64,000 nucleotides of DNA from an uncultured delta proteobacterium (GTDB lineage: Bacteria; Desulfobacterota; Syntrophobacteria; BM002), in NCBI GenBank assembly GCA_963712115.1, contig CAVQGX010000006.1:1-64000 (forward strand), read 5' to 3'. Positions 17,718 through 37,855 of this stretch are shown one piece after another. The translations under genes and the position numbers were made by a program. Positions within the stretch are counted from its first letter, which is position 1; each line of letters begins with the position of its first letter. The notes beneath the pieces are model-generated. The model was given only the letters and a program-made list of their open reading frames with translations. It was not told the DNA's origin and did no database searches.

Positions 17718-17721
17718 TTGC

Positions 17722-19041: not shown

Positions 19042-19087
19042 CTCTTCAATTCACACCAGCATGGAACCAGGTGACAGTCTAGGACGC

Positions 19088-19525: not shown

Positions 19526-19530
19526 CGAAT

Positions 19531-19926
19531 CTACTCCTTTCTCTCTGCGGCTTTGGTGATCGTAGCCAGAAGGTCTTCGAGGTCGCACGGTTTGGTGAGA
19601 TAGTCGAAAGCACCCAGTGCCAAGCCATCTCTGGCGGCCTTTTCCGAACCATGGCCTGTGAGCATGACCACCGGCAATTCCGGATCCATCTTTTTGAATA
19701 TTTTTAAGACCTCGATCCCGTCTATGTCTTCCATCTTGAGATCGACAACCGCTACGTCGAAGTCCTTTTTGCGCAGTGTCTGAATAGCTTCTGAGCCGCT
19801 TAGGGCAATACTCACCTCGACCTGTCTTTTCGTCATCCTTTTGGCAAGGACGTTTACATATCCCTCTTCGTCATCTACGAGGAGGACTTTGATCTGCCCT
19901 TTTTGCCCTTTCCTTCCCTCGGTCAT
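19531..19926 (-). CDS. Stand-alone response regulator
   Basis: LLVDDE, VDLKM, LTGHG and DYLTKP. Confidence 0.92.
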   Translation of the reverse strand: MTEGRKGQKGQIKVLLVDDEEGYVNVLAKRMTKRQVEVSIALSGSEAIQTLRKKDFDVAVVDLKMEDIDGIEVLKIFKKMDPELPVVMLTGHGSEKAARDGLALGAFDYLTKPCDLEDLLATITKAAERKE

Positions 19927-19928
19927 TC

Positions 19929-20360
19929 TTACATCCCGCGCCGCAAGGTTATTTCTTTCATCCGGGCATCGATTATCTTTTGTTCGTGTTTGCCCTTCTT
20001 TTCCTTTGCCTCGTCGACTTTAGCCAGGAGTTCCTCGATCTCACAGGGTTTCATCAGGTAGTCGAAAGCTCCCAGTCTCATTCCTTCCACCGCGGTCTCG
20101 ATGGTTGCATGGCCGGTGAGCATTATTACCTCTACCAGTGGATAGGCCTTCTTGATTTCCCTCAGAGTCTCAATGCCATCCATACCCGGCATCTTGACGT
20201 CGAGAATGACGACATCTACAGCATTCTTTTCAAGCTTTTCTAGGGCTTCCCGGCCACTGTATGCGGAAAGCACCATCAACTGGCGTTTGCTCAAACGCTT
20301 GGTCATGGTTTCGACAAAGGGAACTTCGTCGTCTACCAGCAAAACTAAAGGTGAGATCAT
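19929..20360 (-). CDS. Stand-alone response regulator
   Basis: LLVDDE, LDVKMPG, LTGH and DYLMKP. Confidence 0.92.
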   Translation of the reverse strand: MISPLVLLVDDEVPFVETMTKRLSKRQLMVLSAYSGREALEKLEKNAVDVVILDVKMPGMDGIETLREIKKAYPLVEVIMLTGHATIETAVEGMRLGAFDYLMKPCEIEELLAKVDEAKEKKGKHEQKIIDARMKEITLRRGM

Positions 20361-20361
20361 C

Positions 20362-20775
20362 TTACCCCCCCTTCCTCTCTCTTTGTTTGGTTGAAAAACG
20401 ATTAGGATAGTATTCCCTAAGAACCTTAAAAACCGTCGCTTTCAGGCGATCAGTATTTCCCATTTTCTCTACAAAGGCGGCGGTTTGCTTAACAGCCGGA
20501 TGGCTTGCATCTTCTGTGGCAAACCCATGAATGATCACCGGGAGTCCGGAGTTTACCCGTCGCAGTCGTTCAAGAATTGCCGGCCCACCAGAATAGGGAA
20601 TCTCCAGATCCAGTATCAATAAATCAGGCGGATCGGCTATGCTGACTTTTCGCAAAAGATCACGCCCGTCAGCAGCAACTTCCACCTGGTAACCTTCAGC
20701 AATGAGTTCACGGCGTAGGAAGTTGCGCACGTGCCTGTTGCGGTCTGTGATCAAGACGGTAAAACCATCCAGCAT
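20362..20775 (-). CDS. Atypical response regulator receiver
   Basis: The acidic pocket is degenerate (LITDRNRHVR), while LDLEIP and FVEK are retained. The ATG at 20775 follows GAGGTG. Confidence 0.8.
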   Translation of the reverse strand: MLDGFTVLITDRNRHVRNFLRRELIAEGYQVEVAADGRDLLRKVSIADPPDLLILDLEIPYSGGPAILERLRRVNSGLPVIIHGFATEDASHPAVKQTAAFVEKMGNTDRLKATVFKVLREYYPNRFSTKQRERKGG

Positions 20776-20807
20776 AAAACCACCTCTCACTAGTGCAAAA
20801 CCTTAAG

Positions 20808-20823
20808 AGCAACCGCCATGCCA
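20808..20823 (-). promoter_or_regulatory. Sigma-54 promoter TGGCAT-GGCGG-TTGCT with TTTACA-N3-TGTAAA site at 20911-20925
   Basis: Consensus GG-N10-GC heading the RR-RR-RR-RR-TSUP operon. Confidence 0.75.
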
Positions 20824-20935
20824 CAACATTGCTGAGGCTTAAGTAGCTTAATTTAATAGATTAATTTCAGAGAGAGGGGTTTGATCAGGCTGGAGTGAGT
20901 GCCGGGGTTTTTTACAACTTGTAAAAGGAAAGGAC

Positions 20936-21278
20936 GTCCGTGGTCTGTGGTCAGTTGTCCGTTGCGATTCCACGCAAGAACCGTTCAAATCGTTAAAGTC
21001 GTTGAAATCGTTGAAGTCGCAAGATCGCGGCTAAAAGCCGCTCCCACAAAAGGGGGGACGACGCGGAGAGACGGGGATAGAGGTCAGAAGTCAGAGGACA
21101 GACGACAGAAAAGAGTTAGAGTAGTGGAAGTGTGGAGTATTTTAAGATCTTAAACTCTAAGCACCAAGTCTCAAGGTGTCAGGTGTCAGGGAGGGAAACA
21201 AAAAAGCTGAAACCTGAAACCTGAACACTGAAACCTTAGTCTTTGCCTATATCCGCAACGGACGACGGACCACGGACG
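20936..21278. repeat. Nested mosaic of inverted short-unit repeat arms and a REP-like palindrome
   Basis: The outer arms GTCCGTGGTC..GTCCGTTGC / GCAACGGAC..GACCACGGAC enclose a CGTTGAAAT nonamer run, a REP-like ATCGCGGCTAAAAGCCGCTCCCACA (21024-21048), AGAGGTC heptamers and an AGGTGTC/CTGAAAC hairpin. Confidence 0.85.
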
Positions 21279-21288
21279 CAGCGAGTAT

Positions 21289-22740
21289 TTACGACGAGCT
21301 GCTCACAGCAGTTTCAATCTTAAGCCGGTACTTTTCTATCTTCGCTTGTAGGGTGGGGCGGGAGAGACCCAAGAGCTTGGCGGCACGGGATCGATTGCCG
21401 CCCGTCAGGTTGAGGGCCTCGCTGATAAGAATGCTGGCAGTGTCGTCCATCATGGAGTCGAAAAGACCTTCACCGTGACTTTTGGCCAGCTTTTGTCTGA
21501 ACAACTGACGGAGGGATTCGGTCACTGATTCTTCGTCCACGCTTTTGATTTCGCTGCCTTCCTCCATGACTCGACTCAAGTCTTCAGCGCCGATTGGAGT
21601 CCCTCGATTGAAAATCAATGCCTTCTGCAATGTGTTCGCCAACTCCCGGACGTTTCCCGGCCAGGGATAGCCTCGCAGCAAAGTCTTGGCTTCCGGGACG
21701 CTACCCGGGTTATCCATTTTCATTTCACTCGACAAGCGCTTGAGAAAGTATTCGGTCAAAAGGTCAATGTCTTCAGCCCGTTCGCGCAGCGGTGGCAGCC
21801 AGAGAGTAACCACTTTGAGACGGTAGTAGAGATCTTCCCTAAAGCGTCCTTCTGCGATGGCAGCTTCGAGGTCTCTGTTGGTTGCGGCGATGATCCGGAC
21901 ATCCACCGGAATGGGCTCCCGTCCACCTAGTCTTTCAATACTTTTTTCCTGAAGCAACCGCAGTATCTTGGCCTGGATGCTGAGGGGCATGTCCCCTATT
22001 TCATCCAGAAAAATGGTGCCGCCGTTGGCTTGCTGAATTTTTCCCAGACGACGACTTACCGCTCCGGTAAAGGCTCCCCTTTCATAACCGAAAAGCTCGC
22101 TCTCGAGGAGAGTCTCGGGAATTGCCACGCAATTGATCACCAAAAATGGTCTATGTGCCCTTTTGCTGTGCTGATATATGGCCCGAGCCACCAGCTCCTT
22201 GCCCGTCCCGGACTCGCCCCTAATCAGTGCGGTGGCATCGGTGGAAGCAACCCTCCCTATGGCCTTGTAAATCTCCTGCATTGGTTTGCTCCGGCCAATA
22301 ATGGCATCCGCCGACGGCTTGTCTGGAACTATGTCCATCTCTACCCGCGAGTGCATAAGTCGACCGGCCTCCAAGGCATCCCTTACCAGGGCAAGGATAT
22401 CGGGAATATTGAAGGGTTTGAGGACGTAGTCGAAGGCACCCTCCTTGGTGGCCTCTATAGCCGTTTCAGTAGTGCCATAGGCGGTCATTATTATTATGGG
22501 CAGCTTGGGCTCTACTTTGCGCATGGCCCTGCTGGCTTCCAGGCCATTAATTCCTGGCAAGCGCACATCCATGACCACCAAATCAGGAGGAGATTGTCGC
22601 ACCATGGCCAGACCTGATTCGCCATTGGCCGCTGTCTGCACCGTGTGCCCCTCCTCAATGAGAAGCTTTTCAAAGCTCTGCCTCAGTTGAGGATCGTCAT
22701 CAACGATTAGGACCTTGCCCAAACTGCATCCTCCCGGCAC
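21289..22740 (-). CDS. Sigma-54-dependent response regulator (NtrC/AtoC family bEBP)
   Basis: Receiver domain, GESGTGKE, GAFTGA, FLDEIG, WPGNVREL and a Fis-type HTH. Confidence 0.96.
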   Translation of the reverse strand: MPGGCSLGKVLIVDDDPQLRQSFEKLLIEEGHTVQTAANGESGLAMVRQSPPDLVVMDVRLPGINGLEASRAMRKVEPKLPIIIMTAYGTTETAIEATKEGAFDYVLKPFNIPDILALVRDALEAGRLMHSRVEMDIVPDKPSADAIIGRSKPMQEIYKAIGRVASTDATALIRGESGTGKELVARAIYQHSKRAHRPFLVINCVAIPETLLESELFGYERGAFTGAVSRRLGKIQQANGGTIFLDEIGDMPLSIQAKILRLLQEKSIERLGGREPIPVDVRIIAATNRDLEAAIAEGRFREDLYYRLKVVTLWLPPLRERAEDIDLLTEYFLKRLSSEMKMDNPGSVPEAKTLLRGYPWPGNVRELANTLQKALIFNRGTPIGAEDLSRVMEEGSEIKSVDEESVTESLRQLFRQKLAKSHGEGLFDSMMDDTASILISEALNLTGGNRSRAAKLLGLSRPTLQAKIEKYRLKIETAVSSSS

Positions 22741-24195
22741 GGCAGGGTAATGGTAAAGGTCGTCCCCTCACCCTCCTTGGATTTCAGAGATAGCCAACCA
22801 CCGTGTTCCTCTACGATGCGGTAGGCAATGCTGAGCCCCAAGCCCGTCCCCTCTTCCTTGGTGCTAAAAAAGGGTTGAAATACCTGATCACGAACTGATT
22901 TTGGAATACCAGGACCGTTGTCTTTCACCCGTATTACCACCACCCGGCCCAAAGGCTCAACCACGCCTTCTTCCTCACGAATGACAATCAAGCCGCCTTC
23001 GCCCATGGCCTCACAACCGTTTACCAGTAGATTAATCAAGACCTCTTTTAACTGCTCGGGATCGGCCTCTATCATGGGCAGACGGTGTTCCCGGTCAAGC
23101 TCTACCTGGACACCGTAGGACTCTAACCGATGTCGAAGGAGCTGCAGTGCCATGTCCACTACCTCGGAAGGACTGATACTCTGAATTTTCAGCTTGGGTG
23201 GTCGGGCAAACTCGAGAAAGTTTTGGACGATAGTGTCAATGTGGCGCACTTCCTCCGAGATCACCTCGAAGTCCTCTTGCTGGGTTTGAGAAAGTTCCAG
23301 CGACCGTTCCAGGGAGAAAAGCCTCATGTTCACAGAAGTCAGCGGGTTGCGGATGGTGTGAGCCACTCCCGCAGCCAGTTTTCCCACCATGGCCAGTTTC
23401 TCCGCCTGCAGAAGGTGCGCGCGGCTCTGTTGTAGTTCAGACTGTGTCTGATCTACGTTCTCCATGAGGCTGTGGACTCTCTGGCTTAAGGCGGTCATCT
23501 CCCTGGGGAGGGAGCTGTTGATGTCTACGTCACCCGCTTCCATGGATAGTATTCTAATTGGTTTCAGGATCTGATTCAGCAGGATATAGGCCAGCAGAAT
23601 AGCCCAAAACCAGGACGCTTGGTAGAGCCACCAGGGTCATACCTTTAACCAACCGTGTCTGAGCACGACTCTTGATCCGAGCGTCATTGATTTCTTCCTT
23701 CTTGATTGCCCTATATTGATCGCAGAGACCCTGGATGGCGAAGAACTGCTTCCTCACATCCCAGTGGCGCTCGGCCCCGGCTTCCCGCTTGCCGGCCTGA
23801 TATAGCTGAATTACTTGGTCCCGGGCAAAGATATAACGAAGGTACTCTGATTCGATCTGATTGAGGATGCTTCGCTCATTATCTGTCTGGGCCGAGTTGC
23901 GGGCTTTCTTTAGCCAGGTATGGAAGGACTCGTTGAGTTCCTCCAATTGGTTGAGCCAGTCAGGGTTGCCATCGAGGAAATAATAGGTTGTCAAACCCTT
24001 TTGCCTGACCAGAGCCGTCTCCAGCTCTTCCGCCGCCTGTAACCCCATCACGGCACTATCAAAGACCGAATCGAAGAGATTCGCCATCCGGTAGGTATGC
24101 CACATGGTGACGAGGCCACCGCCTAGAGTGGTCAACACCAAGGCAGCCAGAATCAAGATGATTCGACTGCGCAGGCTTAGTCGTTTCATGATCAC
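22707..24195 (-). CDS. Sensor histidine kinase (four-helix periplasmic sensor), split by a 1-nt frameshift near 23602
   Basis: Removing one base after ..VLG gives ILLAYILLNQILKPIRILSMEAGD, which joins ORFs 23554-24195 and 22707-23543. H-box AHTIRNP and GTGLGL are present. Confidence 0.85.
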
Positions 24196-24295
24196 GGTTT
24201 TATTGTATTACCTGTTTGTTCTTTCTCCGGACACCATGACCCCATAAGGAATCATGGAGTATGGAGCATTAAACAACAAGCAAAAACCCCATGGG

Positions 24296-26119
24296 CTATG
24301 CTGAGTCGCCCCCGCCCAGGTGTACCGCAAGCCTCTGGTGAACAGGCTCTTTCTTGGCCCCATCCTCTGGTGGCAGTGGTAAGCGGACATGGAAGGTGGT
24401 TCCCAAACCCACCGCACTATTCACGCTGATTTCTCCTTCCATCTTTTTAATGATGCCATAGCAGATGGAAAGACCCAATCCGGTTCCCTTGCCCACTGGT
24501 TTGGTGGTGAAGAAGGGATCGAAGATCCTGGCAAGATTAGCTTTAGGAATGCCTTGCCCGGTATCGGCAACGTCCACCACCACCTGGCCGCCATCAACTC
24601 GGGTAGTAATTTCAAGAGTTCCACCGTCAGGGGTCATGGCGTCCAGAGCGTTATTGACCAGATTAAGTAATACCTGTTCAAATTCCGATGGTGAAACATG
24701 GACCTCCGGCAGGTGTTGAGCAAGGTTTAAGTTGAGTTTCACATTGCTGTACTTTACTCGCTGTTCGGAAAGCGCGACCACTTCGTCTATGAGCTCGTTC
24801 AATTGTACTTTACGAAGTTCCGGATCTGTCTTCCGGGCAAAGCTCAAAAGCTTGTGAGTTATTTGTTTACAACGTACCCCTTGGTTTTTGATCTGTTTGA
24901 GAGCTCTTCGGACCTCGGCTGGATCTTCACAGGTGCCGTCTTCCTCTAGTAGATCCTCAATCCAGCCTGCCTCCTCCACCATTATTGCCACCGGGTTGTT
25001 GATTTCGTGGGCTATGCCGGCCGCCAACTCTCCCACCGAGGCCAGTTTGCCTGCTTCAATGATCTGCTCGTTCATCATTTCTTTTTCCCGGTCAGCCCAG
25101 ACTACGCGCTTGATGATTCTACTGGATAAGATGAAAGCCATGCTTACGATGCCCAGGCCGCCCACAAGGAAGATGACCAGGGCCAGCTTTCGAGCGCGAT
25201 ACAGATCTGCGAAGGCATCCGTCGCATCCTGTTGGTAGACTAGCAGCCACTCCCCTTTTTTCAGCGGAGTGCTGACACTGATGTACTCCCCACCCCTATT
25301 TGGATCGCTCTCTATTACGGTCACCGGCTGCCGGTCATTTTTCTTTTTACGAAGCCGATCCGTTGCTTCTAAATGACCTTGGTCCTCGGGGGGCAAACCT
25401 TGGTGGAAACTCTTGACGAGCAGGTCCACATGCTTTCTGCTGTTCTGCCTAGCCGCCAGTGGGGCGTTGGTCTGAAATTCTCCCTCGTGGTTGACGATAA
25501 AAGCGATGCCGGTCTTACCAATGCGGAGATTCTCCACCAGAGAATTGAAAGCGACGAAATCAATAGTGGACCGCAAAATCCAGGTGCCACCCTGCCACTC
25601 CTTCTTGACTGCCACAATAAAATGGGGCAGCCCTCTGATGCCCAGAAATACATCGCTGATAAATTGCTCACTTTTCAGAGCCTTTTTAAACCAGTCCGCC
25701 TCAGAATAGTTGACCCGAGCCAGCTTGAAAGCCCCGGCGTAAGCGACCTGGAGGCCGTCCCCATTGACTAAACCCAGGTCCACGAACACCCCACCGTGTT
25801 CTTCCTGGAGGATGGCCAGTTTTCCCTGAAGAAACGACTCATCACGCAACTGCTCTAGGCTAAAGGTTCTGGTCATCACCCTGATATCGGCCAATTTTTC
25901 ATCGAGAAAACCGTCGATATTTTGCCTGTGTTTCTGCACCACTTCTTCCAGGTGGGCAATTACCTTTTCTTGGTAGGATACTTGGAACTGGTAGAGGATC
26001 ATCCCGGCAATAAGAAGGAGGGGCGCAAAAGACACAAGAATCATGACCAAGAGCATGTTTCTCTTGAGCGTTCTGTAATAGTATGGGCCTACTATTTTCT
26101 TACCTTTCATGGACCACAA
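24296..26119 (-). CDS. Cache-domain sensor histidine kinase
   Basis: Two TM helices, YSEADWF..SDVFLG Cache motif, AHEINNP, and [15 protein letters not shown]. Confidence 0.95.
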
Positions 26120-26459: not shown

Positions 26460-27977
26460 TTACTTGGGCAGTACCACAGGCATGCCCAGCAAAGGCCAGA
26501 TGACCAAGGCAGCTACACCCACCAGAACCATGAGCAGAACACTGGCCGGAATACCATAGAGAAAGAATTCCCCGGTGGTAAACTGCTTGGAGTCATAGGC
26601 AATAGCATTGGGCGCCGCACCCACCAAGAGCAGGAAGGGCATACCGGCGGTGACCAGGGAGGCAAATAGAACAACCTCGGGGGCAACCCCCAGGTATGGG
26701 GCGATGACCAGGGCCACCGGCAGTGAAATGGCGATGGCTGCCACGTTCATGATGAAATTGGTCATAATCATTACGAAGAAGGCAATGCTCAAGACAAAAA
26801 CAAACCAGTTTGCCTTCTGGAACATTACCAGCCAGTTCACTGCCAGCCATTTGGCCGCGCCCGTTTCCCACAAGCAAAAGCCGATGGACATGGCACCGCC
26901 GAAAAGCAGGATGATGTTCCAGGGAATATCTTCCAGGTCTTTGAGGTCCAGAATCCTGGTGAGATAGAAGAGGATGGTGGCAATGAGGATGACCGCGGAC
27001 TTGTTGAAAGGTTTCAGTGCTGGAAGGAAAGATTGCAGCGACAGAAAGATAATTGCAGCAAGGACGATTAAAATAGTCAAAATCTCCCTGCCGGTGATGC
27101 GACCCATTTGAGCCTGGAGAGTCTTTGCCTTTTCTCGCAGACCGGGGATGGTCTTTTTCTCCGGTTTGAAAAAGATCATGAAGAACCCCCAGAGCACGAA
27201 GACCATCAGCCAACCAATGGGAAACATATAGTAGGTCAGCTCAAAAAAAGTGACCTCCCTGCCGACAATGCCCTTGAAAAAGCCTATGGCCACCGCCCCT
27301 CGGGCTGCGCCCAGGAGGGTGATGATGCTGCCTGCCCCGGCCACGTAGGCCATGCCGATGAAGAGACCTTTGCCGAACTTTGTGGGTCTCTCCCCTTCAC
27401 CATAGAGTGAATAGATGGTTAGCATCAGAGGGTAGACTGTGGCTGCCACCGCAGTGTGGGCCATGACGTGGGTGAGGGCTGCCGTTACCAGAAAGCAGCC
27501 GAGATAGATCATGCTGGTTTTCTCGCCGACAATGGAGAGCATTTTATAGGCGAGCCGCCTGGTAAGCCCAGTTTTTGTGAAAACCATACCAATCACAATG
27601 GACCCAAAAATAAACCACACCGAAGGATCCATGAAATCCTTGAAGGCTTCCGAAGCTGTTCGAATGAGAAACATCGACTGCATCACCCCGATGGTAATGG
27701 AGGTGACGCCGATGGGGACCACCTCAAATACCCACCAGGTCCCTGCCAACAAGAACACGGCCAGGGCACCCTTCGCTTCTTTGCTCAGGGGGAAATGTTC
27801 TCCCATGGGATCAACAGCGTCGGGCCAGGGAGGTGAGTAGTAGACGATAGTGAACAGCACCACTCCCAACATAATAAAAAAGATTCTCTTCCAATTCATT
27901 CTCGCCAACAGAGAGGCAATGCCTCCTTCCTCGCGGGATGCTTCAAGGGCCAGTTCTTGCACAGGTGTATCAGACAT
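26460..27977 (-). CDS. SLC13/DASS family permease (paralog 1)
   Basis: Multi-TM protein with WWVFEVVPIG, MAHTAVAA, IPWNIILLFGG and GAAPNAIAY. Confidence 0.93.
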   Translation of the reverse strand: MSDTPVQELALEASREEGGIASLLARMNWKRIFFIMLGVVLFTIVYYSPPWPDAVDPMGEHFPLSKEAKGALAVFLLAGTWWVFEVVPIGVTSITIGVMQSMFLIRTASEAFKDFMDPSVWFIFGSIVIGMVFTKTGLTRRLAYKMLSIVGEKTSMIYLGCFLVTAALTHVMAHTAVAATVYPLMLTIYSLYGEGERPTKFGKGLFIGMAYVAGAGSIITLLGAARGAVAIGFFKGIVGREVTFFELTYYMFPIGWLMVFVLWGFFMIFFKPEKKTIPGLREKAKTLQAQMGRITGREILTILIVLAAIIFLSLQSFLPALKPFNKSAVILIATILFYLTRILDLKDLEDIPWNIILLFGGAMSIGFCLWETGAAKWLAVNWLVMFQKANWFVFVLSIAFFVMIMTNFIMNVAAIAISLPVALVIAPYLGVAPEVVLFASLVTAGMPFLLLVGAAPNAIAYDSKQFTTGEFFLYGIPASVLLMVLVGVAALVIWPLLGMPVVLPK

Positions 27978-28034: not shown

Positions 28035-28475
28035 TCACCACGACTTGGATTTCATCAGCTCTTTGATCCTCTCCTCATGTCTTTTTGAAACGAGAAGCAT
28101 TCTCTTGTCTTTGGCTTTTTTGATTTTCTCCAAGAGCTCCTTGAAATCGGCAGGTTTTTCCACGAAATCCATGGCGCCCAGTTTCATGGCCTCCACACCT
28201 TTGTCAATAGTGCCGTGACCGGTGAGTAGAATAATTTGTAGGTCTGGATTGATTTCTTTGAGCTTCTTCAGGGTCTCCAAGCCGTCCATCTCTGGCATGA
28301 GAAGGTCGAGGACGATTGCATCGTAGGCCTCTCCTTTGGCCTTGTCGATAGCCTCGGAACCTCCCCCGGCTGTTTCAACGTTGAACCCCCGGCCCTCCAG
28401 TCTTTCCGCCAGCAATTTGATAAAGTGCGGCTCGTCGTCAACCAGGAGTACCTTAATTTCTTCTGCTGAAGTCAT
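28035..28475 (-). CDS. Stand-alone response regulator
   Basis: LLVDDE, LDLLMP, LTGHG and FVEKP. Confidence 0.92.
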   Translation of the reverse strand: MTSAEEIKVLLVDDEPHFIKLLAERLEGRGFNVETAGGGSEAIDKAKGEAYDAIVLDLLMPEMDGLETLKKLKEINPDLQIILLTGHGTIDKGVEAMKLGAMDFVEKPADFKELLEKIKKAKDKRMLLVSKRHEERIKELMKSKSW

Positions 28476-28489
28476 TACCTCCTCCCTGC

Positions 28490-28939
28490 CTAATCATCTT
28501 CATCCATGATTTTCTTTGCGGATTCGAAGTCTCCGGCCTCCGCAAAGGTTGCAGCCACCATGGTATCTTCCATCTTGCGCCTGTAGGCGGCTTTCATCTT
28601 TTTTACCAACACATCCAGATTCACCGGTTTTTCCAGGTAGTCAAAGGCACCCAGCCTCTTGGCTTCCTCCTCGTCCTTTTCAGTCCCGTGGCCGGTGAGT
28701 ATGATCACCTGGATCTTCGGATATGCCTTCCTCACCTGGCGCAAGACCTCCATCCCATCTATACCGGGCATCTTCAGATCCAGGACCATGACGTCTGGCT
28801 CCTGGTCTTCCACAAAGGAGAGGGCCTCCTCGCCGTCTAGGACGGTATCCGAGCGCAGATCGCGCATCTTTAACCGTTCTGCCAAAGCCTTGACGAATTC
28901 CTCCTCATCATCCACCAGCAAAACCTTCATATCTTTCAT
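28490..28939 (-). CDS. Response regulator with C-terminal AATFAEAG tail
   Basis: Canonical receiver followed by MEDTMVAATFAEAGDFESAKKIM. Confidence 0.92.
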   Translation of the reverse strand: MKDMKVLLVDDEEEFVKALAERLKMRDLRSDTVLDGEEALSFVEDQEPDVMVLDLKMPGIDGMEVLRQVRKAYPKIQVIILTGHGTEKDEEEAKRLGAFDYLEKPVNLDVLVKKMKAAYRRKMEDTMVAATFAEAGDFESAKKIMDEDD

Positions 28940-28941
28940 GC

Positions 28942-29496
28942 TTACTCCTCCTTTTCGGGAGCAGATATCGGCTCTTTCCCCTCTTTGAGGATCTGCGTGG
29001 CACCGTTGAAGTCTCCCGATTCGGCCAATGTAGCAGATACCATAAGATCTTCAAGTCTTTTCCGGATTGATCTCTTTTTCTTGCCCTTCTTCGACTTTTT
29101 CTTCGCTCCAGCCTCTCGCAGTTTGGCCAGGAGATCCTCGAGGTCAAAGGGAATCAGCAGGTCGGCAAAAGCACCCCGTTTCATGCCCTCGATTGACCAG
29201 TGGATGCTTGAAGGACTCGTCAGGGTAATGAATTCGGCGAAAGTTTTTGTCTCCTTGATGGAATCCAGGATTCTGATTCCACTTGCACCAAGATCATTGA
29301 CGTTTATGACCACCACATCAATGTCATCACGCTGCAAAATGGCAAGTGCCTCTGAGGCTGTCTGGGCAAAGCTGACCGCCACTCCCTTTGAGCAGATACG
29401 CTCGGACAGTGTCCCCATAAATCTTGAGTCTTCGCCAATCAGCAGGACATTCTCCTTCACACTATCCAAACCCCCTCTTGGTGAGAGCGTTTCCAT
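28942..29496 (-). CDS. Pseudo-receiver (Asp to Asn) with C-terminal SATLAESG tail
   Basis: LLIGED, and VVVINVND at the phospho-Asp position. Tail LEDLMVSATLAESGDFNGATQIL. Confidence 0.8.
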   Translation of the reverse strand: METLSPRGGLDSVKENVLLIGEDSRFMGTLSERICSKGVAVSFAQTASEALAILQRDDIDVVVINVNDLGASGIRILDSIKETKTFAEFITLTSPSSIHWSIEGMKRGAFADLLIPFDLEDLLAKLREAGAKKKSKKGKKKRSIRKRLEDLMVSATLAESGDFNGATQILKEGKEPISAPEKEE

Positions 29497-29530
29497 TATT
29501 GGTTCTTCCGCAAGAACCCCATTATTAAGG

Positions 29531-29592
29531 CTAGCCCGGATTTTTCATGAATCGCGGTCGCAGCAGGTGATTCATGGAATTTCCGGGCTAAG
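29531..29592. repeat. TAGCCCGGAT..TTCATGAAT palindromic element (short copy); supplies the stop codon of the upstream gene
   Basis: CTAGCCCGGATTTTTCATGAATC ... GATTCATGGAATTTCCGGGCTA, related to 43801-43933. Confidence 0.7.
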
Positions 29593-29917
29593 CATTTACC
29601 GGGACCAGGCCGGACCAGATTTTCACGCCCGCCAGTGGAGAATCTTCTACGGGGATCCAGCCGATCCAAACTTTAACACCGGGAAGTTCCAGACGAGCCG
29701 CTTTTGCCTTTCTGCCGCTCACTTGCAGAAACTCCCTGGCCGTATCAGCTAGCCCGGCCTCGGCGAAGGTGATTGCGGTCATCCAATCATCCAAAACCAA
29801 CTTTTTCTTCCTAGTCGCCTTCGCGCCCACAAAACACAAGGCAGTTTCATGCTCGTTTGCCTCGGCAAAAGTCACCGCATTCATCAAATCTTCTAATCTC
29901 TTTCTCAGACCTTTCAT
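29588..29917 (-). CDS. Small hypothetical protein with two A(V/I)TFAEA repeats
   Basis: RBS AAGGAG. Contains LEDLMNAVTFAEANEHETA and LDDWMTAITFAEAGLADTA, plus a duplicated L(P/A)GVK(V/I)W.G..PV. Confidence 0.75.
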   Translation of the reverse strand: MKGLRKRLEDLMNAVTFAEANEHETALCFVGAKATRKKKLVLDDWMTAITFAEAGLADTAREFLQVSGRKAKAARLELPGVKVWIGWIPVEDSPLAGVKIWSGLVPVNA

Positions 29918-29960
29918 GGCCATTCTCCTTTGTCCGCAATGATCTTTGCCTATACTATTT

Positions 29961-29976
29961 AGCAATGACCGTGCCA
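29961..29976 (-). promoter_or_regulatory. Sigma-54 promoter TGGCAC-GGTCA-TTGCT
   Basis: Perfect consensus, with TG(T/A)TTCAAAT-type dyads upstream at ~30039-30089. Confidence 0.8.
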
Positions 29977-30130
29977 TACAATTTTTTATAGTTATTATAA
30001 TTATTTAGATTCTAAGGTCATTACAGAATGATTTATTATGTTTCAAATTAAGTCAGTAGATATTGATTCAAATTGTTTCAAATGAATCATAAGGGGAAAA
30101 GATGGGAGATTGCAATCTATGGGGTGTGTA

Positions 30131-30847
30131 TCATGCATACTTTGCAGGAAAGGAGAGGATTACCTTGTTTTGCCTTTCGTCCTCTTGCTCAGCGGCAATG
30201 GTGCCGCCCAACCCTTTCATGGTTTGGGCTAATAGGGCGAGGTCTGATTCACCTTGTTCTGCCTCAGCCGAAGGGTCGGCGGAGACTAGTGCTCCTATCT
30301 TGTCTGCCTCAACCGTCCCTTGGTCTGTTACCGTCACCTGGAACATTTCTCCGGACCGATCTGTCTTCACCGTTACCTCAGCCTCCCTGGGGGAGCAATT
30401 GATCGCCCGTTCGATGAATCCAAAAATTACATAAAGAAGGCGAAAGGGGTCGCTCTGGAGGTGCAAGGGTTCAGAGTCCAGTTTCGTTTCTAGATTTACC
30501 CGACGCAGGGTGGCAAACCTTTGGGCCAGAATAACAGTTTGCTTGACCGTCTCATTGAGATCCAAGTCTACCAACGACTTGTCCATGCTGTGAGCGAACT
30601 GGTTCAACCGTTTAACGATAGCCGCACTCCGTTGCACCTGTTCCTCTATGGAACCAATCAGGTTGGTCAATCGTGAGTACTGTGGCCAATCGTCGGGCGC
30701 GTCTTTGCGCAGAAGATCTCCCATGAGCCCGACTGACTCGTTGATAATGGCGAGAGTGTTTTTGATCTCATGGGAAAGGCTGGCAGTCACTTTGCCCATG
30801 AAACCTATCTCTTTTACTCTGGAGAGTTCTTCAACCTTTTTCTCCAT
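30131..30847 (-). CDS. Sensor-less HisKA protein with degenerate HATPase domain
   Basis: H-box SLSHEIKN is intact. The N-box is replaced by FGFIERAI and there is no GxGLG. Confidence 0.8.
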   Translation of the reverse strand: MEKKVEELSRVKEIGFMGKVTASLSHEIKNTLAIINESVGLMGDLLRKDAPDDWPQYSRLTNLIGSIEEQVQRSAAIVKRLNQFAHSMDKSLVDLDLNETVKQTVILAQRFATLRRVNLETKLDSEPLHLQSDPFRLLYVIFGFIERAINCSPREAEVTVKTDRSGEMFQVTVTDQGTVEADKIGALVSADPSAEAEQGESDLALLAQTMKGLGGTIAAEQEDERQNKVILSFPAKYA

Positions 30848-30851
30848 GGCT

Positions 30852-31229
30852 TCAATCCGTGCTTACTTTACTTGCGGCTTCTTTCATTTTCTCCAGCATT
30901 TCTTCTATGTCCACCGGCTTGATCAGATAATCAAAGGCACCCAACCTCATTCCTTCGATACCCTCCCTGGTGGATCCATGGCCGGTCAGCAGGATGACCT
31001 GGGTATTGGGGTGGGTCGATTTGATTTGCCTCAGGACCTCCAGTCCACCCAACCCCGGCATCATCACATCAAGAATGACCACCTCGAATTCCTTTTCCAC
31101 CAGCCTGGCCAATGCTTCTTCCCCGTTCAGTGCGCTGTCCACCTCAATACCTCGCAACATGAGTCTCTCTGAGAGGGCCGAGACAAATTCTTCTTCGTCA
31201 TCAACCAGCAACACTCTATATTCTGCCAT
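30852..31229 (-). CDS. Stand-alone response regulator
   Basis: LLVDDE, LDVMMPG, LTGHG and DYLIKP. Confidence 0.92.
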   Translation of the reverse strand: MAEYRVLLVDDEEEFVSALSERLMLRGIEVDSALNGEEALARLVEKEFEVVILDVMMPGLGGLEVLRQIKSTHPNTQVILLTGHGSTREGIEGMRLGAFDYLIKPVDIEEMLEKMKEAASKVSTD

Positions 31230-31239
31230 CTTCGAGCTC

Positions 31240-32974
31240 CTATGCCATCTTGCATTTCCGAGGAAGAACTACGGTGAAAGTGCTACCCTTTCCTAACTTA
31301 CTTTCCACTCTGATGTCACCACCGCATTTGGCTACAATGCCGTAAGAAATGGATAGTCCCAGTCCGGTACCTTGCTCTTTGCCCCTCGTGTAGAAGGGAT
31401 CAAATATGTGTTTCAGGTCATCCGGGTGAATACCACGGCCGTCGTCGGCGATTGCAACTTCAACGATGTCCGGTTCCGTCTCATTTTCCTTGGTAGCAAT
31501 GGTGATGTTGCCCCCATCCGCCACCGCTTCAAAGGCATTGTTAATGATGTTCAAGAACACCTGCTGCAGCTGACCCCTGTCGTGGGCGATGGGGGCGAGA
31601 TCCGGGGCAAGGTTGAAATTTACCTTGATATTTCGGTGGAAGGCCTCCTTCTCCAAAAAGCCCAGCACCTCTTGCACCAGCTCGTTGAGGTAGATTGTCT
31701 CAACCTTGACATCCATGCGCTTGGCGAATCCGAGGAGTCGATGAGTGATTTCCCGGCAGCGGTTAACCGACCTCAAGATGGATTCCACCTGCGACAGCAA
31801 TTTCTCCCGGTCATGGTATTCCTTGGAGAATTCTACCAGGTCTTTAAGCAAGCCTGCTTTTTCGTTGATGATGGCCAGGGGGTTGTTTATCTCATGAGCC
31901 ACACCAGCGGCCAGCCTCCCCAGTGAAGCCAGCTTGGCAGTTTGCTCCACTTCGATGTAGCAGGATTCACGCTTTTGATCGGCTTCGCGGATTCGATCTA
32001 CCAAGAGGCCGGCAGTCCTGAAAGAGACTATGAGGATGACTGCCACACTGACCACCAGGACCAGGAGAAGTTCGCTTTTCAAGGTAAACCAGCCGGCCAT
32101 CACCTCACCAGGTTCCTTGATCAGAACGAGAATAAAAGTGGCACCCCGCAAGTAGGCGTAACCTAGCAGGTGTTCTCCGTGATCGTCCTTCGTTCTGGTT
32201 ATAACCGCTTCCTGACTCATTGGTGGGACTGGAAGAGAAACTTTTTCCAGGACGTTACCGTGGAATCGCGAAGGTGTCTGCAGGACACCCTCCCGATCTA
32301 TAAGAAATATATCGCTCCCAGGTCTGAGGGTGATGGTGCTAATGAGCTGGTTGAACTTCTCGGTGTCAATGGTGGCTCGCAAAACATAAAAATCACCTTC
32401 GACAGTATCCCGCTTGATGGCTATGACGAAATGGGGAAATTTCCGGTATCCCAGGAAAACGTTGCTGACGTAGACCCCACGAAGCTGTACCTCCTGAAAC
32501 CAGTCTTGATCTCGGTAATTCTTGCCCTTGAGTTCGTAGGGCCCGGCGTAGCTTCGCTGTAGACCGGAAGAGTCGATAAGACCGAGGTCTACAAACTCGG
32601 GGAACTCTGCCCTCAGACTCTGAAAAATGAAATTGAGACGGCCTTGGTTGCTCAGTTCCTCAAAAGTGCGCTCCCGGATCAGCAACCTCAGGGTGGACTC
32701 CCGCTCGCTCAGGAAAAGCTCGAGGGTGTGTTTTGCACTGGTGATCAACCTCGTCAGCGGTTTGACAATTTCTTCCTTGAGCGCACTCTGATACTGATAG
32801 TAGTTGATTGCCGCCATGAGCAGCAGAGGAATGATCGCAGTGGCGCAGACAATCAAGACAAAATTCTTGCGCAGGAGGTTGTATCGTTCAGGCCCCTCCC
32901 CGTAGTTGGGGAAAGTCCTTCAAGCCTTTGGGCATCAGCCGTCGAAACTTTTGCCAGATACCGCTCATCTTCAT
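31240..32974 (-). CDS. Cache-domain sensor histidine kinase (5' end frameshifted near 32912)
   Basis: Paralog of 24296-26119 with AHEINNP and GTGLGL. The ATG at 32974 (TGATG overlap) joins the main frame if one base is removed from TTTCCCC. Confidence 0.88.
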
Positions 32975-33325
32975 CAACCTTGAGAAGCTTCTCCACTCAG
33001 GATCGCTCCGGGCTCAAGTCTACCACCTCTGGCAAACTCCAGGGCCCGGTCGTACGGCGCTATTACAGAATCAATAACCCTTACCTCTTTTCCAGGTGAG
33101 ATACTGGAAATACTCCTCCTCTATACCACCACAGATTACCATGGTGATCCCTTCGGTGAGAATCAGGTGACAAAGATCTTCAGCGGACACGCTTGGTAAA
33201 ACCACAGTTTTGCAGTGCAGCACCTCGCCAGTGGAATCCACCGTGGCAACCAGTACCTCGCTGGTCAGGTCAAAGCGGGGCGCCACCTGGTCTCGCCAAA
33301 TGGTAATCAACAGTTTCTCGTTCAT
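32974..33325 (-). CDS. NifB/NifX (dinitrogenase FeMo-co biosynthesis-like) family small protein, frameshift near 33087
   Basis: VAPRFD..ICGGI. After the shift it continues VRVIDSVIAPYDRALEFARGGRLEPGAIL to a TGA overlapping the next ATG. Confidence 0.75.
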
Positions 33326-33493: not shown

Positions 33494-34903
33494 TCAAACC
33501 AGATTGTGCTGCTTCATTTTCCTCCACAGGGTTGACCTACCCCAGCCAAGAAGTTTGGCCGCCTTGCTCCTGTTGCCCCTGCTCTTCAGCAGGGCCTCGG
33601 AGATCATGCGACGCTCCATCTCTCGCCAGTTGAGCCGATTGTCAGCGACTCTCGTTTTCATCTTCTCGTCCGCCAGTCCAGGGTAACTGTCCCTTTCGCC
33701 ACCAGTCACCCCGGCCTCCGGTTGCAGGGACTCATCCCATGCTCCTCCAAGATAATCAGGCAAATGTTCTGGCTTTATAATGGTTTCATGGCAAACATTG
33801 GTGGCATATTCCACCATGTTGCCCAACTCGCGCACATTACCCGGGTATGGATACCGTCTGAGGATCTCAATGGCTTCCGGGGAAAAGGTTCTGATTTTCT
33901 TTTGAAATTGTTTGTTGAATTTGTTGAGGAAATACTCCATGAGTAGTCTTATATCTCCTTCCCGCTCACGCAGGGGCGGTACTTCGAGCCTCACCACATT
34001 GAGTCGGAAAAGAAGGTCTTCCCGAAAATTTCCCTGCCGCACCATGGCCTGCAAATCACGATGGGTTGCGGCGATCAGCCGCACATCGGCTCTTGCGCTT
34101 CTGGTCCCGCCCAGAGGGATAATTTCCTTGTCATCGAGGAAAGTCAGAAGCTTGACCTGAAGGGTCAAAGGTAAATCGCCAATTTCAGTTAGATAAAGCG
34201 TCCCTCCGTCGGCCAGTTGGAATCGACCGGGCTTATCCCGCACAGCACCCGTGAAAGCGCCTCTTGTATGACCGAAAAGCTCTGACTCCAAGAGAGTCTC
34301 GGGCAAAGCGCCGCAGTTGATCTTAATAAAAGGCCCTTGCGCTCTGGGGGACACCCGATGGATCACCGAGGCAATGAGGTCTTTACCAGTGCCGGTCTCT
34401 CCTGTTATCAGCACTGAGGAATCAGTCTGTGAGATAATGGGAAGAATGTCTAAAAGTTTTTGCATCTTGGGGCTGTGACCAACCAGGTCACTGAAATCGT
34501 GAGCTATTTGAGTCTTCTTATCCAACTGACGGAGCAGCGAAATATCCTCGATCGTCTCTATCACCCCTACAGGCTGACCTTCATCGTCCTTGAGGACAGA
34601 GGCGTGGATCATAACCGGAATTTTTTGTCGTTCCCGGTTGATTATGTTTCCTTCAAGGTGAACAGCTCGGTCACTTTCCAAGGCCTGTTTTGCCGGACAC
34701 TGCTGAGTACAGAGGTTATTCCTGATGATGTGAGAACAGCCAACCCCAATGGCCTCCTCTCGGCTGAAGCCGGTCATGGCCTCAAGGGCTCGGTTTATTG
34801 CCTGGATCCGCATGTTTGTGTCAAGAACAGCGACCCCTAGAGGAATGCAGTCTATTACTTCGTCTAGCTGGACACTTTTGTTTGGAAAAGAAGAAAAATC
34901 CAT
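33494..34903 (-). CDS. PAS-domain sigma-54 enhancer-binding protein
   Basis: PAS with Cys motif (CSHIIRNNLCTQQCP), GETGTGKD, GAFTGA, YPGNVREL and HTH. Walker B reads YLTEIG. Confidence 0.95.
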   Translation of the reverse strand: MDFSSFPNKSVQLDEVIDCIPLGVAVLDTNMRIQAINRALEAMTGFSREEAIGVGCSHIIRNNLCTQQCPAKQALESDRAVHLEGNIINRERQKIPVMIHASVLKDDEGQPVGVIETIEDISLLRQLDKKTQIAHDFSDLVGHSPKMQKLLDILPIISQTDSSVLITGETGTGKDLIASVIHRVSPRAQGPFIKINCGALPETLLESELFGHTRGAFTGAVRDKPGRFQLADGGTLYLTEIGDLPLTLQVKLLTFLDDKEIIPLGGTRSARADVRLIAATHRDLQAMVRQGNFREDLLFRLNVVRLEVPPLREREGDIRLLMEYFLNKFNKQFQKKIRTFSPEAIEILRRYPYPGNVRELGNMVEYATNVCHETIIKPEHLPDYLGGAWDESLQPEAGVTGGERDSYPGLADEKMKTRVADNRLNWREMERRMISEALLKSRGNRSKAAKLLGWGRSTLWRKMKQHNLV

Positions 34904-35767: not shown

Positions 35768-36322
35768 ATGAAAATAAAGACCGTCAGGGATATAATGACT
35801 CCTCTTTCCGAGTACGGGACGATTTCGGAGGAGGCCACTTTGTATGAGGCTGCTGTGGCCCTGGATAAAGCTCAGCAGGAGTTCCAGCAGGATCGTAGCC
35901 GGCACAGATTGCTTCTTATCGTTGATCAGAATGGAGAGGTCAAGGGAAAGATCAGCCAGTTGGATGTGCTAAGAGCCCTGGAACCAAAGGGAGAGCACAT
36001 CGAGGACTCACGGTTATTGAGACGTTTCGGCGTCAGCAGGGAGTATCTAAAGCCCATGCTCAAGCAGTTTCACTTTTGGGAAAAACCACTGATGGACCTC
36101 TGCAAAGAGGCAGGGAGGCTCAAGGTGAAAAGGTTGCTCCATGCCCCAGCAGAAGGAGAGTTCGTCGATGAAAATGCTTCTCTGGCCGAAGCCATCCACC
36201 AATTAGATATGGGGCATTATCAGTCTTTGTTGGTCACAAGGGGCAAAAAGATTGTGGGAATCTTGAGACAGAGAGATATGTTCAAAGAGGTTTTTGAGAC
36301 TCTAAGCATTTGTGAGTTGTGA
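35768..36322 (+). CDS. CBS domain protein
   Basis: VRDIMTPLSEY..GKISQLDVLRALEP and SLLVTRGKKIVGILR. Confidence 0.9.
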   Translation: MKIKTVRDIMTPLSEYGTISEEATLYEAAVALDKAQQEFQQDRSRHRLLLIVDQNGEVKGKISQLDVLRALEPKGEHIEDSRLLRRFGVSREYLKPMLKQFHFWEKPLMDLCKEAGRLKVKRLLHAPAEGEFVDENASLAEAIHQLDMGHYQSLLVTRGKKIVGILRQRDMFKEVFETLSICEL

Positions 36323-36379: not shown

Positions 36380-37855
36380 ATGCCTAAGGTTTTAGAAGCT
36401 GGTACCAACAGCGACAGTTTCAATTGGAAGAGGATAGTTCTCTTACTAATGGGAATACTGCTCTTTGCCTTGGTCTATTATTCCCCTTCCTGGTCCGAGG
36501 CTGTTGACCCAGTGGGAAAGCACTTCTCTCTGAGCAGAGAGGGAAAAGGTGCCTTGGCGGTCGCACTCCTTGCCTCAACCTGGTGGGTATTTGAAGTGGT
36601 GCCAGTGGGAATAACCAGCCTGGCCATTGGCGTACTCCAGGTTTTTTTCTTTATTCGTCCTGCTAAAGAAGCTTTCAATGACTTCATGGACCCTTCGGTC
36701 ATGTTCATCTTCGCCTCCATTGTCATCGGCATGGTTTTCACCAAGACAGGCTTGACCAGGCGTCTGGCCTACAAGATGCTGGTGATCGTGGGGGAGAGAA
36801 CCAGCATGATTTACCTGGGCTGTTTTGTTGTCACCGCAGCTCTCACCCACATCATGGCCCATACAGCAGTGGCAGCGACTATTTATCCTCTAATTCTATC
36901 CATTTATGGACTTTACGAAGCAGACGACAAACCGACCCGATTTGGAAAAGGGCTCCTCATTGGCATGGCCTATGTGGCTGGAGCCGGCAGCATCGTTACC
37001 CTTCTGGGGGCCGCGCGAGGCCCCGTTGCCATAGGCATCTTCAACGATGTTGTAGGAAAGGATGTTGGCTTTTTCGAGTTGAGTTACTACATGCTCCCCA
37101 TCGGATGGCTTATGACCTTTCTGCTATGGGTGTTTTTCTTGATCCTCTTCAGGCCTGAAAAAAAGGTCATACCCGGCTTAAGAGAAAGAGCCATCCGGCT
37201 CAATGCCAGCCTTGGTCCCATGACCAGAAACGAGATCACTGCCGGTTGCATAATTTTGGGCTGTGTCCTGGTAATGTCCTTGCGTTCCTTTATTCCTCTT
37301 CTAAAACCGCTGGATAAAACTGCCATTATTGTGACATCCACAATCTTGTTTTTTATTACCGGCATTCTCGATATCGACGATCTCGAAGAGATCCCCTGGG
37401 ACATCATTCTCCTTTTCGCAGGTGCAATAAGCTTAGGTTTTTGCCTCTGGGAAACTGGGGCAGCGAGATGGCTGGCGGTGAAGTGGCTTATGAAATTGGA
37501 AGGAGCCAACTGGTTCCTGTTCGTCATGGGCATTGCATTTTTCGTCATGATCATGACCAACTTCATCATGAACGTGGCTGCTATTGCCATCTCCCTTCCG
37601 GTGGCCCTGGTTATCGCTCCCTATCTGGGGGTGGCGCCGGATGTCATACTCTTTGTATCTTTGGTGGCAGCCGGCATGCCATTTCTCCTACTGGTAGGAG
37701 CTGCACCGAATGCCATTGCTTATGAGTCAGGGCAGTTCACTGCCGGTGAATTCTTCGCCTACGGAACTCTGGCAAGCATCATACTTATGGCAGTAATGGC
37801 TCTTGCGGTTTTCTTTCTCTGGCCTCTGATGGGAATGCCCATTTTTGTGTCGTAG
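36380..37855 (+). CDS. SLC13/DASS family permease (paralog 2)
   Basis: Colinear and closely similar to 26460-27977. Confidence 0.93.
   Translation: MPKVLEAGTNSDSFNWKRIVLLLMGILLFALVYYSPSWSEAVDPVGKHFSLSREGKGALAVALLASTWWVFEVVPVGITSLAIGVLQVFFFIRPAKEAFNDFMDPSVMFIFASIVIGMVFTKTGLTRRLAYKMLVIVGERTSMIYLGCFVVTAALTHIMAHTAVAATIYPLILSIYGLYEADDKPTRFGKGLLIGMAYVAGAGSIVTLLGAARGPVAIGIFNDVVGKDVGFFELSYYMLPIGWLMTFLLWVFFLILFRPEKKVIPGLRERAIRLNASLGPMTRNEITAGCIILGCVLVMSLRSFIPLLKPLDKTAIIVTSTILFFITGILDIDDLEEIPWDIILLFAGAISLGFCLWETGAARWLAVKWLMKLEGANWFLFVMGIAFFVMIMTNFIMNVAAIAISLPVALVIAPYLGVAPDVILFVSLVAAGMPFLLLVGAAPNAIAYESGQFTAGEFFAYGTLASIILMAVMALAVFFLWPLMGMPIFVS

Follow-up and report, generated by a model that had tools for sequence, protein, structure and literature searches.

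Single-domain receivers count among the most common response regulators, and most lack a known output. The N-terminus of FliM and the C-terminus of CheZ are short helical peptides at which single-domain receivers and their targets meet in a phosphorylation-dependent manner, and the C-terminal unit of FimV/HubP docks partner proteins of a signalling pathway with a single-domain receiver among its components. On the transport side, TeaD regulates the TeaABC transporter. Here we analyzed a stretch of 64,000 nucleotides (nt) from an uncultured delta proteobacterium of sulfate-reducer type in the Desulfobacterota (assembly GCA_963712115.1, contig CAVQGX010000006.1, positions 1 to 64,000; hereafter the window), in which three adjacent genes of the minus strand encode an intact single-domain receiver, a pseudo-receiver and a small receiver-less protein that share a short motif, predicted to be a helical hairpin and considered here as a candidate docking element.

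A related gene organization has been described in Desulfovibrio vulgaris Hildenborough, where DVU3303 (a Lon protease with a receiver domain, REC-Lon), DVU3304 (a kinase) and DVU3305 (a sigma-54 regulator) have DVU3302-DVU3298 as their target operon. In the portions of the published accounts available to us, several stresses induce this operon, which encodes membrane, hypothetical and UspA-type proteins (PMC3333781), cofitness above 0.9 links the Lon, kinase and regulator genes (PMC10102598), and DVU3299, a putative anion transporter, has a chlorate phenotype (PMC10102598; PMC4641369). Those portions mention neither the hairpin nor the small open reading frames (ORFs) (PMC3333781, PMC10102598, PMC4641369). 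The DASS and TauE families have been named by comparative genomics as sulfate-transporter candidates in sulfate reducers, and the available part of that paper has no passage on response regulators or on neighbours of the CBS or universal stress protein (USP) type (PMC5840216).

Four copies of one motif in three adjacent genes

The first-pass annotation of the window had reported four copies of the motif in three adjacent, co-oriented genes, and all four peptide strings were located on the minus strand as claimed, within a range (28490-29917) that extends from the receiver stop codon to the ATG of the small gene. Two copies lie in the small protein (copy 1, 29807..29917, core 29840-29896, domain E-value 4.4e-16 and supported by alignments; copy 2, 29705..29815, core 29738-29794, domain E-value 1.7e-13), one lies in the tail of the pseudo-receiver (28966-29076, core 28999-29055, E-value 1.3e-14), these three by profile match, and one forms the C-terminal extension of the intact receiver (28493-28594, core 28517-28573). 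When the six frames of the 4.9-Mb genome were searched with a strict regular expression, these four sites were the only matches. A profile derived from the copies identified five copies at E-values of at most 4e-16 among 117,970 open-frame fragments of the genome, the next best match having an E-value of 1.8. A broader profile of 65 sequences added a sixth, degenerate copy on contig C31 (E-value 6.7e-5), and the next best match in the genome, at 0.086, was a real TPR protein outside the family. The genome total is six copies at two loci only, four at the window locus and two on contig C31. The recurrence of the motif is confirmed as real and lies far beyond chance.

An alignment of the DNA of five copies revealed synonymous third-position variation (ACT/ACC/ACA, TTT/TTC/TTG, GCC/GCG and GAG/GAA). 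Because the copies vary at synonymous positions, selection and conservation act at the protein level and not at the DNA level. Over 65 copies from many genomes, the consensus was R-x-K-L-E-D-x-M-x-A-x-T-F-A-E-A-G-x-x-x-x-A-R-x-[IF]-[LM], in which E19 was present in all 65 copies, A18 and A26 in 63 each, E9 in 57, G21 in 56, F17 in 55 and T16 in 54. The conserved charged and polar residues argue for an external contact rather than for packing of the hairpin alone. We also observed Lys/Arg-rich stretches beside nearly all hairpins at many loci (for example, window 29077-29130 and positions 1062-1130 of locus L002), among them the pseudo-receiver linker, the N-terminal part of USP-like proteins and, in proteins of 55-60 residues, the tails of the form R-P-R-P-x-L-R-A-P; these basic flanks are probably disordered.

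The three carriers had been described in the first-pass annotation as a normal receiver, a pseudo-receiver and a receiver-less small protein, and this description is borne out by Pfam scores and residue checks. The intact single-domain receiver (28490..28939, minus strand, 149 residues; Response_reg, PF00072, 103.3 bits) has the hairpin as its sole extension, directly after the last receiver helix, and D10, D11, D54, T82 and K104 were invariant in 11 sequences. Its identity to 10 orthologues from several families ranged from 69 to 97%, the hairpin being nearly invariant, while the 120 database relatives listed were all at least 95% identical. The 184-residue protein (28942..29496, minus strand; Response_reg 41.5 bits) contains a basic linker and a C-terminal hairpin after its receiver-like domain, in which Asn stands in place of the acceptor Asp and Ile in place of the conserved Lys. 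In all 10 orthologues, the acceptor position was occupied by Asn, Gly, His or Ser and the Lys position by Ile or Val; because every orthologue thus lacks both residues, we assigned this carrier as a pseudo-receiver.

The small protein (29588..29917, minus strand, an ORF of 109 residues) contains two hairpins followed by two short C-terminal strand repeats, and a possible alternative start is present at 29923, after AAGGAG. No Pfam or NCBIfam match was found for it. With the 111-residue form starting at 29923 as the query, 134 homologues at E-values of at most 1 were obtained among 150 candidates; the 120 listed were 57-93% identical, mostly of 109 residues and without a Pfam domain. This search was dominated by close orthologues, and no fusions occurred among the matches listed. 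The two C-terminal repeats (29591..29692, minus strand), recognized by alignment, follow P/A-G-V-K-V/I-W-x-G, and small proteins of several families carry the related forms V-G-L-x-G-V-R-V-x-Y-G or L-P-G-V-K-I-W-Y-G. A strict pattern gave three hits in the genome, two of them here, and no other real gene. The repeats were predicted as low-confidence short strands by AlphaFold2 (AF2). Loci with the C-terminal repeat are the window (29591-29692), L014-L018 and L034-L052. The repeat may serve to contact another partner.

The motif spans approximately 35 residues. Two AF2 models were obtained, both of monomers, one for the small protein of the window and one for a relative with three hairpins and a USP-like domain, and each of the five copies in them showed a helix of 16-18 residues, a turn of 3 and a helix of 8-13. 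The motif is thus predicted to be a helix-turn-helix hairpin resembling one isolated TPR unit. In the model of the small protein (predicted local distance difference test, pLDDT, 59; predicted template modelling score, pTM, 0.29), helices were placed at residues 2-19/23-31 and 36-53/57-67 with a helix pLDDT of about 70-77. The model of the three-hairpin relative had a mean pLDDT of 85 and a pTM of 0.62, with about 87-96 in the hairpin blocks.

The motif had been proposed as uncharacterised, and our searches agree. It has no record or name in Pfam, NCBIfam or the PDB and no description in the literature searched, in which the longer motif strings were absent and short strings occurred only in papers unrelated by title. 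The Pfam search of the window proteins gave no TPR match at an E-value of 0.01 or below, and even in multi-copy relatives the gathering thresholds of the TPR models were never reached (TPR_4 at best 24.8 bits against 27, TPR_14 19.7 against 23.5). The PPR model likewise remained below threshold (17.8 bits against 20). The FimV_Cterm model TIGR03504 (cut-off 30.65) scored 21.5 bits in a multi-copy relative and 13.4 bits in a second relative, and did not match the window small protein, the receiver tail or the small protein of contig C31. Runs of three or more directly adjacent, superhelix-forming repeats were not found, the copies being single or joined by linkers of about 10-40 residues. When the sequences in the PDB were compared with the motif profile, no solved structure matched, the best being FimV (4mal, E-value 0.4) over the second helix only. 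Foldseek and VIA-align searches with the three-hairpin model returned matches to its USP domain only, the ESM Atlas held only unnamed clusters of the same phylum, and cluster look-ups of motif proteins gave only "hypothetical protein".

Distribution and conserved neighbourhood of the motif

We built a profile and tabulated fusions and neighbours, and the motif was found to be portable across several architectures. An exhaustive profile search of 1.84 billion representatives returned 1309 proteins at E-values of at most 1e-3 and 186 at most 1e-10. Among the best 150 of these 1309 representatives, 111 consisted of the motif only (1-3 copies) and 33 had 2-4 copies before a USP-like domain; the best 150 included no receivers, and single-copy receiver fusions score lower and rank below them. 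Other architectures elsewhere were the tails of receivers and pseudo-receivers and, in one locus, a membrane protein encoded beside TauE. The hairpin lies C-terminal to receivers and N-terminal to USP-fold domains (1-4 copies). Receiver homology does not account for the motif, which is also carried by small proteins without a receiver, by USP-fold proteins and by a membrane protein. When longer proteins were sought by a word-indexed search, 777 matches were obtained at E-values of at most 0.01, a few of which carry Response_reg; the named matches were "universal stress protein" or "hypothetical protein", and their sources were several orders of the phylum as well as Nitrospirota. The distribution is patchy: the motif is present in 29 of 41 close and class-level relatives, and a phylum-wide sample of 301 genomes contains it in 49 (30 of 200 genera).

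The domain to which the hairpin is most often fused has the USP fold, as evident from its overlay on 3ab7 (Z-score 11.8, root mean square deviation 2.3, 96 residues aligned), its Z-scores of 10.2 to TeaD (3hgm) and 9.0 to the KdpD USP domain (7ji4), and a Foldseek probability of 1.00 to UspA (3s3t). By sequence (PF00582, threshold 24), these domains mostly stayed under the threshold (16-25 bits), P0162 and P0128 lying just above it at 31.1 and 24.7 bits. Some proteins had unusual architectures. In L046 (5071-6531, genome G119) and in P0244, a two-hairpin small protein forms the C-terminal end of a protein of approximately 480 residues whose N-terminus matches the transposase-type families HTH_29, HTH_32 and HTH_23; these fusions look like insertion or read-through rather than a designed architecture. 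In L047 (111-878, genome G270), a USP-like protein has its hairpin in mid-ORF or at the C-terminus, which may reflect a mis-called start or a permuted architecture.

The gene set of the window was found at 29 loci in 29 genomes from 10 families. The small gene, with one or two hairpins and one or two C-terminal repeats, was directly upstream of the hairpin-tagged receiver in 24 of these 29 window-type loci, with a tagged pseudo-receiver between the two in 16. Neighbours included a dCache kinase in 27 loci, a degenerate kinase 30-500 nt upstream in 26 and a NifX-like protein in 15. A link between the motif and the transporters, CBS and USP proteins named in the first-pass annotation was also recovered in other genomes. 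In particular, a CBS protein, the commonest downstream neighbour, was present in 20 of the 29 window-type loci and mostly followed the tagged receiver at a distance of 0-640 nt; a DASS carrier was present in 13 (plus one by Pfam only), TauE in 12 and either carrier in 23-24. A PAS activator was found in 8 of 29. Many loci reach only about 4 kb to either side, and distant genes such as this activator are therefore under-counted.

The other hairpin locus of the same genome, on contig C31 (291982-297689; L001 5983-11690), holds the fifth and sixth copies and belongs to a second type. Its genes run in the order sigma-54-like element, 57-residue hairpin protein with a basic tail, 102-residue membrane protein, TauE, USP gene, 203-residue USP-like protein with a degenerate N-terminal hairpin and REC-Lon protease. 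The USP gene appears as two overlapping frames (92 and 221 residues), possibly owing to a frameshift or an assembly error. In the 13 second-type loci, including this one, one or two hairpin proteins of 55-60 residues with basic tails are followed by a protein of approximately 190 residues with a basic N-terminus, a hairpin and a USP-like domain. A carrier was found in 10 of the 13 (CitMHS/TrkA_C in 7, TauE in 3), and this type also includes a HAMP kinase and an NtrC-type regulator. Pfam identified a REC-Lon gene (Lon_C, AAA and Response_reg) next to the hairpin genes at 9 of the 13 loci scanned.

In the phylum sample, a gene of the REC-Lon type was found within 7.4 kb of a hairpin ORF in 25 genomes and within 1 kb in 15 of them, mostly in divergent orientation. 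This type was defined by at least 91 bits to the N-terminal 118 residues and an ORF of about 670-830 residues, the receiver domain being inferred from length and similarity, and the comparison used top hits only (score, length and position). A presence/absence profile of REC-Lon was dropped because the N-terminal 118 residues also match ordinary Lon, in 299 of 301 genomes.

A sigma-54 element had been claimed ahead of the small gene, and TGGCAC-N5-TTGC was indeed read at 29962..29976 on the minus strand, a -24/-12-type element 59 nt upstream of the small-gene ATG, with an AAGGAG site between the element and the gene. Of 29 loci that included both types, 20 had such an element, located at -59 to -82 relative to the first hairpin gene, where 0.02 per 300 nt would be expected. 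Downstream of the tagged receiver lie a plain single-domain receiver of 146 residues (28035..28475, minus strand; Response_reg 111.9 bits), for which profile searches found no motif, and a DASS anion carrier (26460..27977, minus strand; Na_sulph_symp 155.7 bits, TIGR00785 204.4 bits against a cut-off of 198.6), which is 504 nt from the tagged receiver and, as had been proposed, probably in the same unit. The probable last gene of the unit is a dCache histidine kinase (24296..26119, minus strand; dCache_1, HisKA, HATPase_c). The only terminator-like site at a gene end (24285-24297) follows the kinase stop; no convincing terminator was found between the small gene and this kinase, the terminator and sigma-70 scans being at background level.

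Metatranscriptomic contigs from four libraries of four studies cover the three tagged genes. Single RNA-library contigs bridge them at 28621-29801 in one run, at 29126-29946 in another and at 28745-30194 in a relative, and in two runs the cover ends at 29946-29978, near the predicted transcript start. These contigs carry no strand or level, and such libraries can hold DNA; they are consistent with transcription of the three genes without proving it or its start, and the end of the cover is a weak hint of a transcript start from the sigma-54 element. The intergenic spacer at 29497..29587, outside the module, contains a multi-copy repeat of about 35 nt (at least 40 blastn hits across the genome) that overlaps no hairpin; RNA-library contigs of relatives have 3 or 17-18 nt in place of 29500-29587, and depth spikes there.

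Upstream on the minus strand, Pfam identified a degenerate kinase (30131-30847), a receiver (30852-31229), a second dCache kinase (31240-32856), a NifX-like protein (33071-33325) and a PAS/sigma-54 enhancer-binding protein (33494-34903), and, beyond them on the plus strand, a CBS-pair protein at 35768-36322 with a second DASS carrier at 36380-37855. Also encoded in this outer part of the window are a TauE permease and a tandem USP. We also observed a hairpin-free, receiver-rich unit on the minus strand at 17010-24195. It comprises a split sensor, made of a 4HB_MCP protein (23554-24195) and a kinase core (22707-23543), an NtrC-type regulator (21289-22740), a row of four single-domain receivers (19088-20790) that begins with a weakly scoring one, a TauE of 439 residues (17722-19041) and a 235-residue protein without a Pfam match.

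Docking as a tentative function and its alternatives

The module is conserved at the protein level, predicted to be helical, portable, under a sigma-54 promoter and set in a conserved neighbourhood. From the sequences and the predicted fold, we tentatively suggest, at somewhat less than an even chance, that the hairpin serves as a handle for protein-protein docking by which signalling proteins would be connected to the control of anion carriers; the docking function, its gating by phosphorylation and the identity of the partners are what we infer from these data. A docking peptide had already been put forward in the first-pass annotation, and among the explanations considered it is still the best hypothesis. 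In the proposed mechanism, the PAS activator, fed by the dCache kinase set, would serve the sigma-54 promoter, which would drive five products, namely the small protein, the tagged pseudo-receiver, the tagged receiver, the plain receiver and the DASS carrier. The face near the last helix of a receiver usually responds to phosphorylation. Because the hairpin lies right after this helix, phosphorylation could, by analogy, gate the handle by exposing or hiding it, and the hairpin would then be the only output of the receiver. The handle would allow the receivers, the pseudo-receiver and the small protein to associate with one another or with a co-encoded CBS or USP-type regulator of the anion carrier, with the small protein acting as a bridge or a competitor.

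A broader version of this proposal, which we regard as possible but rather doubtful, is that solo TPR-like hairpins are the common plug of an undescribed docking network in anaerobic sulfur bacteria. Mutual recognition through the plug would connect single-domain receivers and pseudo-receivers with sensors of USP fold, tiny proteins induced through sigma-54, a membrane subunit associated with a transporter and a receiver-gated Lon protease. The 35-residue handle would be the entire output of a receiver, and induced small multi-hairpin proteins would rewire or titrate the network and thereby set the activity of anion carriers.

Several observations weigh against docking in the form described above. 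No carrier was present in the stretch examined for L014, L025, L040, L047, L050 and L052, three of which are cut by a contig end. A one-to-one scaffold, in which the hairpins of the small protein equal the tagged receivers in number, was rejected (2:1 in L035-L038, L040 and L045; 1:1 in L018 and L034); this picture is weakened by a mismatch between the hairpin count and the tagged-receiver count in 8 loci. The monomer model of the small protein, at a pTM of 0.29, is poor and of low confidence. Lastly, the association of the second locus type with REC-Lon fits a role in proteolysis at least as well as docking. On this alternative, the hairpin would be a recognition tag or adaptor handle for REC-Lon of the DVU3303 type, and the tagged proteins would be delivered to the protease or regulate it in a phosphorylation-controlled proteolysis. 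We consider it unlikely; for the second arrangement it is the strongest rival. It is favoured by the position of REC-Lon beside hairpin genes in 9 of 13 second-type loci, including the one in the window's own genome, by the 25 genomes of the phylum sample in which such a Lon lies no more than 7.4 kb from a hairpin ORF (no more than 1 kb in 15), by the basic, probably disordered tails of the small hairpin proteins, which suit a protease substrate, and by the cofitness of the D. vulgaris genes given in the consulted part of PMC10102598. However, no Lon was found among the Pfam-scanned neighbours of 7 window-type loci (the wider table of 29 loci had no Lon query), and the motif-positive families f36, most of f47 and f51 had no such Lon among the top-scoring matches listed. 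This Lon type also occurs in motif-negative genomes (seven of f15, two of f80), the receiver domain of the distant matches was assigned from length and similarity, and a hairpin that is near-invariant over ten families would be unusual for a simple degron.

A different possibility, which we judge to be quite improbable, is that the hairpin is a lid or latch on its own receiver or USP-fold domain, autoinhibitory or dimer-blocking, which the free small proteins would mimic in trans. The hairpin always abuts a globular domain through a short or basic linker, and in the model of the three-hairpin relative the hairpin next to the USP domain is the most confident (blocks at pLDDT 90-96), with a pTM of 0.62 although only about half of the protein is the USP domain, which suggests that some hairpin placement is defined. 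The same hairpin, however, occurs on two unrelated folds and in motif-only proteins (111 of the best 150 representatives), and up to four copies with long unconserved linkers before one USP domain are hard to accommodate as a single lid. It has also to be considered that the acidic hairpin or its basic flanks might bind something other than protein, either a metal or small ligand at the often His-containing turn or a membrane or nucleic acid. The invariant Glu, the acidic residues at turn positions 22 and 24, the His at position 23 in 21 of 65 copies, the Lys/Arg-rich stretches beside most copies and the location of the genes in ion- and anion-transport operons would fit such binding, but the copies share no Cys/His pattern, none of the receiver-type copies has the His, and no family or structure match points to a ligand site; we regard this explanation as very unlikely. 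Almost no credence is left for the notion that the recurrence reflects no functional module at all and arose by chance, from ordinary TPR-like low-information sequence or from a DNA-level repeat. In its favour are the similarity to generic TPR, PPR and FimV models, which is only sub-threshold, and the multi-copy DNA repeat of the neighbouring spacer, but that repeat overlaps no hairpin, and the explanation is contradicted by E-values of about 1e-14 to 1e-19 for the copies against 0.086 for the next best match in the genome, by the synonymous variation among copies, by the 1309 representative proteins and by synteny conserved over 10 families.

If the hairpin is a docking handle, it would offer a testable route from phosphorylation to the control of DASS- and TauE-type carriers and a connection to the stress system around a receiver-gated Lon. 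A receiver that is nearly invariant across ten families has one extra element, the hairpin, and the same hairpin marks more than 1000 protein clusters named only "hypothetical" or "universal stress protein". The analysis also adds many tiny sigma-54-driven genes, a class that annotation tends to miss, and a curated family model would provide better annotation for many genomes of the phylum and of Nitrospirota.

Comparison with described proteins and systems

Compared with TPR hairpins (Pfam TPR_4 PF07721, TPR_14, TPR_6 and TPR_12), the motif similarly consists of two helices in about 34 residues, and its small residues and one aromatic residue, spaced A..F...G....A...L, coincide with the packing positions of the TPR consensus; multi-copy motif proteins also give weak TPR matches. 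In contrast, TPR repeats form a contiguous solenoid, whereas the motif copies are single or separated by 10-40 unconserved residues, and the motif has its own near-invariant T-F-A-E-A-G core with the invariant Glu. The FimV/HubP C-terminal domain (TIGR03504; 4mal) is alike in being a single isolated TPR-like unit at a protein end, but it is found in other taxa and in another gene context. The resemblance to the FliM and CheZ peptides is a functional analogy only; here the peptide is on the receiver itself and on other proteins.

The USP-type transporter regulators TeaD, of the TeaABC TRAP transporter (3hgm), and the KdpD USP domain (7ji4) have the fold of the commonest fusion partner of the hairpin, which is itself encoded beside carriers; unlike the hairpin proteins, TeaD and KdpD lack the hairpin. 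The D. vulgaris system of DVU3303, DVU3304 and DVU3305 with its target operon DVU3302-DVU3298 has the same parts as the C31 locus and 9 of the 13 related loci, and shares with them an operon under sigma-54 control that encodes an anion carrier together with membrane, USP-type and hypothetical proteins. The combination of REC-Lon, a kinase and an NtrC-type regulator was found at C31 and was absent from the window locus; in the annotated stretch of the window there is no Lon, and the activator is of the PAS type rather than the receiver type. The window locus represents a different system from that of DVU3303-3305, one with a PAS-type activator, dCache kinases and hairpins carried on the receivers themselves.

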